64,000 nt of DNA from Escherichia coli (GTDB lineage: Bacteria; Pseudomonadota; Gammaproteobacteria; Enterobacterales; Enterobacteriaceae). Position 1 is the first letter of the stretch. Every line of letters starts with the position of its first letter. The stretch lies in assembly GCF_003334405.1 (NCBI RefSeq), contig NZ_QOWM01000003.1; one strand, written 5' to 3'. A model generated the notes under the pieces. It made no database searches. It was not told the DNA's origin and was given only the letters and a program-made list of their open reading frames with translations. This document shows, in pieces, positions 26,136 to 26,377 of the stretch. The translations under genes and the position numbers were made by a program.

Positions 26136-26340
26136 GCCAGATGCGGCGTGAACCTTGCATCCGGCGATTAATTCCTACAAAGGCGGCGTAACTGCGCCGC
26201 TTGAGACTGCTGACAAACGCAAAACTGCCTGATGCGCTTCGCTTATCAGGCCTACGTGTTTCCTGCAATATATTGAATTTGCACAGTTTTGTAGGCCGGA
26301 TAAGGCGTTCACGCCGCATCCGGCATAAACAAAGCGCACT
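26136..26340. repeat. cluster of REP/BIME repetitive extragenic palindromes
   Basis: Several units (GCCAGATGCGGCGTGAACC..., GCTTATCAGGCCTACG..., GTAGGCCGGATAAGGCGTTCACGCCGCATCCGGC); a stretch of about 65 nt is near-identical to the cho-nadE copy. Confidence 0.85.
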
Positions 26341-26353
26341 ATGTAAATCATTT

Positions 26354-26377
26354 GAGGCGGCGCAATTGCGCCGCCTC
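26354..26377. terminator. perfect GC-rich hairpin (GAGGCGGCGC-aatt-GCGCCGCCTC) just past the katE stop; probable katE terminator stem
   Basis: Palindrome read directly; lies immediately 3' of katE (minus strand). Confidence 0.5.

Follow-up and report, generated by a model that had tools for sequence, protein, structure and literature searches.

The 257-nt spacer that separates the convergent genes chbG and katE of Escherichia coli is probably a two-layer composite 3′ region, across which katE transcription would read through, be released by Rho and leave an RNA trimmed back to REP-a, the repeat element nearest to chbG. This reading is carried by the anatomy of the spacer, the orthology of one of its hairpins, a dimorphism of the spacer within the species and one mapped RNA 3′ end. 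The first layer would be an old enterobacterial GC hairpin, which is the sole element between the two stop codons in Citrobacter and Salmonella and survives in the analyzed sequence as hairpin B, along with a paralogue, hairpin A. The second layer would be an accretion of repeats in one Escherichia lineage, comprising a BIME-1 and a solitary degenerate y-type REP (REP-a). All of these elements fall within known categories and are of already-described kinds; E. coli has been known for decades to carry REPs, BIME-1 elements (alias RIP or RIB) and protective hairpins that lack a U-tract. The locus holds little new biology, being one more instance in the best-annotated genome, and it provides a worked example of a region in which the most striking hairpin is not the site of the mapped RNA end.

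Layout of the chbG-katE spacer

In the window (the whole stretch of E. coli DNA that was analyzed, 64,000 nt in length), chbG and katE are convergent and are separated by a gap of 257 nt (26124-26380), which is identical to the spacer of E. coli K-12 MG1655; chbG and katE are also the genes annotated in the RefSeq records beneath the spacer match. From chbG toward katE, the elements follow each other in the order REP-a, hairpin A, z1 iREP, L linker, y REP and hairpin B. They are listed here together with the flanking coding sequences (taken from the ORF list) and the mapped RNA 3′ end.

25374..26123, plus strand: chbG coding sequence, 249 aa, with the stop codon TAA at 26121-26123
26131, minus strand (katE strand): RNA 3′ end, corresponding to MG1655 1816378 (+), LB at OD600 ~2.0, 1035 reads, class 'antisense chbG'
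26136..26178, plus strand: REP-a, a solitary degenerate y-type REP in iREP orientation, with its palindrome at 26136-26165 and its CTAC tag at 26175-26178
26181..26202, no strand assigned: hairpin A (AGGCGGCG-TAACT-GCGCCGCTT), 9 pairs (RNAfold)
26227..26255, plus strand: z1-type REP in iREP orientation, left arm of the BIME-1 (GCCTGATGCGCTTCGCTTATCAGGCCTAC), with CTAC at its end
26256..26290, no strand assigned: L linker of the BIME-1, 35 nt, with a match to Rfam ES036
26291..26324, plus strand: y-type REP, right arm of the BIME-1 (GTAGGCCGGATAAGGCGTTCACGCCGCATCCGGC), with the GTAG tag at its 5′ end
26354..26377, no strand assigned: hairpin B (GAGGCGGCGC-AATT-GCGCCGCCTC), a perfect 10-bp stem with an AATT loop
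26381..28642, minus strand: katE coding sequence (catalase HPII, 753 aa), with the stop codon TGA at 26383..26381

As far as this anatomy is concerned, the initial annotation of the spacer is borne out. The ORF list and direct reading return the same 257-nt convergent gap, with the coordinates and sequences given there; the "several" REP palindromes proposed are three in number (26136-26165, 26227-26255 and 26291-26324), one pair of them making up a BIME-1; the hairpin GCGGCG-taact-GCGCCGC is present at 26183..26200 and is widened by RNAfold to 9 pairs (26181-26202); and the perfect hairpin just past the katE stop (26354..26377) is a 24-nt palindrome with a 10-bp stem. RNA folding, suggested at the time as a check on an almost entirely structured spacer, points the same way, as both strands beat 200/200 shuffles (z = −7.5 for the katE strand and z = −6.0 for the chbG strand, with 0/200 shuffles as good). 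The structure of the spacer exceeds chance. Two ORFs, at 26175-26381 (−) and 26201-26416 (+), span the REPs and hairpins of the spacer.

K-12 annotation presumably already marks REPs at the chbG/katE locus; the NC_000913.3 record that was consulted gives coding sequences only at this place. The number of REPs annotated in K-12 is put at 355 (PMC4550694). A literature search for chbG together with katE returned nothing relevant to the locus.

REP-a, the BIME-1 and its linker

REPs are imperfect palindromes, 30-40 nt long, whose foot bears a conserved GTAG, read as CTAC on the opposite strand (PMC3333891). Both the y REP (26291-26324, with folding energies of −20.9 and −21.3 kcal/mol) and the z1 iREP (26227-26255) agree with this description, each of them having an internal mismatch in its stem, and REP-a agrees with it only in part, its CTAC tag being displaced by ~9 nt. 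With its start 10-12 nt past the stop of chbG, REP-a shows 81% complementarity to the y REP (26295-26325); its folding energies are −14.2 kcal/mol on the plus strand and −18.2 kcal/mol on the minus strand. The high intergenic copy number that is characteristic of REPs is observed as well: with the REP-bearing portion of the query, matches were obtained in 5426/5426 E. coli genomes, at a median of at least 40 places per genome.

A BIME-1 is composed of a z1 and a y REP arranged inversely around a conserved long linker, often with an IHF site (Ton-Hoang et al., 2012, PMC3333891). The elements at 26227-26324 follow this order in a single copy, namely a z1 iREP with CTAC at its end, the L linker, whose 35 nt include an IHF-consensus site, and a y REP that begins with GTAG, all placed between convergent genes, and by these marks they are a textbook BIME-1. 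Nothing essential differs from the described type; here, an extra degenerate y REP (REP-a) is found 60 nt away. At the DNA level, IHF would probably bind the L linker, as judged by ATTCAATATATTG at 26278..26266 (−), a sequence match with one mismatch to WATCAANNNNTTR.

The Rfam family ES036 is matched on the minus strand at 26248-26290 (55.5 bits vs. a gathering score of 37.6), and the match covers the BIME-1 linker only. The window contains a second, degenerate BIME-1 (19084-19190), whose linker is likewise matched by ES036 (19102-19144, 42.9 bits), which indicates that this Rfam "sRNA" family is in practice the BIME-1 linker. The y REP of this second BIME-1 has turned into a perfect 10-bp hairpin, GTTCACGCCGCATCCGGCGTGAAC (19161-19184).

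A perfect complementarity of 10 nt (CTGCCTGATG / CATCAGGCAG) is observed between the start of the z1 iREP (26225-26234) and the last codons plus stop of katE (26379-26388), and the MFE fold of the katE-strand RNA uses this pairing, which encloses hairpin B. The K-12-type end of katE (CCTGCCTGA) differs from that found with the short spacer allele described below (CCGGCGTAA) by synonymous changes only, and these create the REP-like string.

IS621 at the BIME-1

In strains 96_1414B, HS and MJ-T, the z1 iREP of this same BIME-1 carries an insertion of IS621 (IS110 family, bridge-RNA recombinase, 1279 bp). The insertion point is the CT at 26252-26253 (loci L001, at 1704-2983, L090 and L091), and the junctions read ...ATCAGGC-CT|TGTAT... 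and ...ACAGTAT-CT|ACC..., with the CT core on both sides; in MJ-T, IS621 is itself split by an IS3-family element. The site is of the same type as other REP elements targeted by IS621, being occupied in these strains and free of IS621 in the window. Judging by the shared insertion point, the BIME-1 of the spacer is a recurrent IS621 landing site.

Strain EH2252 (locus L002) is without the IS, and its region matching 26247-26290 of the window reads GCTTATCAGTATCTACCAAT (...TTATCAGTATCTACC...), in which "CAGTATCT" equals the IS621 right end plus the CT core, the right-end bases CAGTAT being kept. This arrangement looks like the footprint of an IS621 loss by deletion between the target TCAG and the IS-end ACAG. 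The L-linker sequence of the EH2252 lineage is unlike that of K-12.

GC hairpins A and B

Hairpin B, which lies 3 nt from the katE stop (26381-26383), folds with −22.8 kcal/mol on the plus strand and −23.4 kcal/mol on the minus strand, the respective values for hairpin A being −15.4 and −11.6 kcal/mol. On the katE strand, hairpin B is followed by AUGAUUUACAUA, and on the chbG strand by AUCAGGCAGGAA, neither of which contains a U-tract. Hairpin A is followed on the katE strand by CUUUGUAGG, a weak U-tract, and its other tail is UUGAGACUG, with UU only past the hairpin on the chbG strand.

The two hairpins are 90% identical over 20 nt. In the 64-kb window, this 20-nt motif has four matches (two sites, each on both strands) vs. 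0.07 expected, and it is absent elsewhere in the window. On the strength of this likeness and of their confinement to one spacer, hairpins A and B are local paralogues. A genome-wide repeat family was also considered and rejected, since a 50-nt query around hairpin B finds ~2 places per genome, both of them in the chbG/katE spacer, and the genomes with such places are the 2170 that have the long spacer allele. A target-site duplication of the BIME-1 as the source of the hairpin pair is not supported, as the similarity does not extend beyond the 20 nt of the hairpin into the flanks, which are unrelated; no flanking duplication is found at the other BIME-1 of the window (~19084-19190).

We consider it improbable that the two hairpins bracketing the BIME-1 are the footprint of the copying or insertion of a "hairpin plus BIME" module, by which the long allele would give katE a 250-nt structured 3′ UTR ending at the chbG stop; such a module could have arisen at the ancestral terminator hairpin, for instance by duplication or by template switching. 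If this were true, stationary-phase katE transcription would be coupled to antisense control of the chb operon, and long-allele and short-allele strains would differ in katE/chb regulation.

Orthologous hairpin in outgroup species

The outgroup scan was based on the KatE C-terminus and one genome per species, with 80 loci returned and 309 kb fetched. In all Citrobacter species returned, as well as in Salmonella enterica subsp. diarizonae and Intestinirhabdus, the katE-chbG spacer measures 40-56 nt and contains a single hairpin; in it, an A5-7 run precedes the hairpin (T)GCGGCGCA-loop-(T)GCGCCGC(A), after which comes AAACTCAGG. The stem GCGGCGC/GCGCCGC occupies this site in 12/80 outgroup species, and the 309 kb of outgroup loci contain it at no other place. 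In an alignment of outgroup sequences with the E. coli copies, seven core stem pairs are kept in 13/13 sequences; loop length and loop sequence differ among them, and compensatory changes affect three pairs. A compensatory change from C-G to U-A is observed in two Escherichia spp. Thus, the same site and a conserved stem with compensatory changes identify hairpin B as orthologous to an old, structurally selected hairpin of the outgroups.

In the outgroups, the T-run (T5-7) is on the chbG strand only, where it lies downstream and is the counterpart of the A-run upstream on the katE strand. From the placement of this run, the outgroup hairpin is an intrinsic terminator of the chb operon (a canonical one-way terminator) and a U-less hairpin for katE. 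Of this chb-operon terminator of Citrobacter and Salmonella, E. coli has kept the stem and lost the T-run.

Two spacer alleles in E. coli

Two unrelated spacer alleles segregate among 5426 complete E. coli genomes. The long 257-nt allele with the REPs and hairpin B is found in 2170 of them (~40%), and a short allele of 46 nt in 3247 (~60%), e.g., in CFT073 and O157:H7, with one different hairpin (GGTAAGGTCAC...GTGACCTTATCC, about −23 kcal/mol). The short spacer type is also present in E. whittamii and two other Escherichia lineages, and a 143-nt form, with one GC hairpin, TTTG and a BIME, is found in Escherichia spp. E1V33 and MOD1-EC7003. This distribution of alleles points to the REP cluster as a lineage-specific accretion on an ancestral single-hairpin spacer. 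Most E. coli, like the related genera, can do without the dense structure. From a practical standpoint, the pair of long and short alleles (40%/60%) is usable to measure the effect of a REP cluster on two convergent operons.

The coding sequences on the two sides of the spacer were also compared. Among E. coli alleles, identity is 84-92% over the last 420 nt of chbG (25704-26123), which are as divergent as between Escherichia species, and 95-99% over the katE 3′ end, which adjoins the spacer; the divergence of the chbG 3′ end does not follow spacer type. This pattern of identity suggests that the 3′ part of chbG is a recombination mosaic. ChbG has 249 aa in the window vs. 252 aa in many other strains.

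A polymorphism of this kind is also what one would see if the spacer were essentially selfish or neutral DNA, in which REPs and BIMEs were spread by the RAYT (TnpA-REP) transposase, the hairpin was duplicated by local rearrangement, and no role was selected beyond incidental effects on RNA stability. This explanation is possible, if somewhat doubtful. The uneven presence of the cluster (40% long vs. 60% short) fits it, as do the L linker swapped in some strains, the repeated insertion of IS621, and the differences in REP/BIME copy number and sequence between strains (PMC3333891). It is countered by the conservation of the core stem across genera with compensatory changes, which argues that at least this part is under selection, and by a stable RNA 3′ end at REP-a (see below), from which it follows that a REP here has a molecular consequence. 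As regards the second layer, neutral spread overlaps with the composite, two-layer origin that we favor and does not exclude it.

Transcript 3′ ends and termination

The 3′ ends considered here come from the curated Term-seq data of Adams et al. (2021; PMC7815308, Supplementary file 1) for LB 0.4, LB 2.0 and M63. The only curated 3′ end in the spacer, a single entry of modest depth (1035 reads) from one study, is 1816378(+) on the LB 2.0 (stationary-phase) sheet; it was placed at position 26131 of the window by way of the spacer sequence, which is exactly that of MG1655. This end belongs to the katE strand and lies 5 nt past REP-a, ~250 nt past the katE stop and ~220 nt past hairpin B. Expression of katE is RpoS-dependent, and a 3′ end that appears in stationary phase only is in agreement with this.

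No curated 3′ end is listed at hairpin B in LB 0.4, LB 2.0 or M63, where a weak end may fall below threshold. Since only the strongest peak within 100 bp was kept in the curation, an end at hairpin A would be hidden. The chb operon was not induced in the Term-seq media, and the curated end of the spacer reports on the katE strand only. There are no 3′-end entries for the locus in the TERMITe and RepRanger supplements, and none in the bicyclomycin dataset (Adams et al., 2021), which was obtained in exponential phase, katE being a stationary-phase gene.

A transcript 3′ end inside the spacer, by the presence or absence of which the initial annotation was to be judged in Term-seq data, is thus present at 26131 on the katE strand. 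The proposed role of the structures as insulation between two convergent units fares less evenly: the structures are real and an RNA does end within the spacer, but that end is not at hairpin B; it lies ~220 nt beyond, at REP-a. The phrase "dense insulation" reads as design, and the density stems from repeat accretion in one lineage: 3247/5426 genomes have just one hairpin in a spacer of 46 nt, as do Citrobacter and Salmonella in 40-56 nt.

Hairpins A and B both provide the GC-rich stem-loop of an intrinsic terminator. A 7-8-nt U-tract directly 3′ of the stem is found on neither strand, and the curated 3′ end is not at a U-tract (the 100-bp merging of peaks could conceal one at hairpin A). A consensus scan of 25800-26700 for promoters or terminators returned 0 sites. 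In view of the missing U-tract and the empty scan, canonical intrinsic terminators were rejected as a classification of these hairpins. Bidirectional terminators of convergent gene pairs have reportedly been described by Ju and colleagues in 2019; the spacer shares with such terminators the GC-rich stem-loops between convergent genes and differs from them in having no 7-8-nt U-tract and no A-tract/U-tract symmetry.

These observations make it unlikely that the spacer is a purpose-built double or bidirectional insulating terminator, with hairpin B as an efficient terminator of katE, and hairpin A or the REPs terminating the chb operon. Under such an arrangement, one would expect a U-tract after hairpin B on at least one strand, a site in the terminator scan and a katE-strand end near hairpin B, and what is found is neither tract nor site, and a curated end 220 nt further on, at REP-a. 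Furthermore, the outgroup T-run belongs to the chbG strand only, and ~60% of E. coli have one unrelated hairpin in 46 nt. What speaks for a dedicated terminator is the stability of hairpin B (−23 kcal/mol) directly after the katE stop, the conservation of the hairpin position across genera and the strong structure of the whole spacer; moreover, a missing curated Term-seq peak is not proof of absence.

Proposed read-through, Rho release and trimming

REPs are said to act as mRNA stabilisers or protective 3′ stem-loops, a view that goes back to work by Newbury in 1987 and by Peters in 2012. According to Dar and Sorek (2018; PMC6061677), Rho-dependent transcripts end just downstream of stable stem-loops without U-runs, such ends are made by the trimming activity of PNPase and RNase II, and rut sites are located just beyond; REPs were linked to a protective 3′ role by Dar and Sorek and by Peters et al. 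(PMC6061677). Several features of the chbG-katE spacer resemble this system: its stems are U-less, the end at 26131 (−) is placed 5 nt past REP-a, itself a stem without a U-run, and the RNA downstream is C-rich and G-poor. Indeed, the 100 nt downstream of 26131 on the katE strand contain 37 C and 15 G (C/G = 2.47), a rut-like composition. Unlike in the published cases, the curated end does not coincide with the strongest hairpin (B), and the parts played by Rho and trimming are presumed.

In the two-layer composite region that we favor, RNA polymerase on the katE strand would not be efficiently stopped at hairpin B, because this hairpin has no U-tract, and would transcribe the whole spacer. 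Rho would most likely release it within the C-rich RNA antisense to chbG, which is untranslated, after which PNPase and RNase II would trim the transcript back to the first stable stem-loop, REP-a, leaving an end 5 nt past it. Exonucleases would also be held up at the remaining stem-loops, one of which, hairpin A, may in addition terminate transcription weakly. That the RNA ending at 26131 originates from the katE promoter is an assumption of this scheme.

An additional effect on translation is conceivable. REP-a (10-12 nt from the stop of chbG) and hairpin B (3 nt from that of katE) may dampen translation of the respective genes, since a terminating ribosome must melt REP-a or hairpin B. REPs located within 15 nt of a stop codon are reported to lower translation via ribosome stalling (Liang, Rudd and Deutscher, 2015, as summarised in PMC12306157). 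Both elements lie within this distance of their stop codons; hairpin B, however, is not a REP, and for this hairpin the rule would be extended by analogy.

The least probable of the explanations considered is that the spacer encodes a small RNA, either ES036/CssrF-like or a naRNA4-like nucleoid-associated REP RNA acting with HU: ES036 does score above its gathering threshold at 26248-26290 (−), naRNA4 gives 39.7 bits on the plus strand (26294-26382), and most REPs are reported as transcribed and REP325 RNA as condensing DNA (PMC4550694), but naRNA4 falls short of its gathering score (59.5), the ES036 match is the BIME-1 linker alone and recurs elsewhere in the window, and the region has neither a promoter-like site nor a separate small-RNA 3′ end listed. 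Among the known RNA families searched against the spacer, only ES036 (i.e., the BIME-1 linker) passes its threshold, naRNA4 and all others being below threshold or noise.

Other features of the window

Elsewhere in the window, Rfam gathering scores are also exceeded by Phe_leader (43233-43357, 75 bits) and the STnc540 sRNA (47198-47356, 67.4 bits), both of them unrelated to the spacer. Other perfect hairpins with a stem of at least 10 bp are found in the window at 16559-16584, 32430-32457, 43125-43149, 47269-47293, 50255-50281, 52999-53022 and 54163-54183. At least the one at 47269-47293, AAAAAGGCCGCTCTGCGGCCTTTTT, looks like a bidirectional intrinsic terminator.
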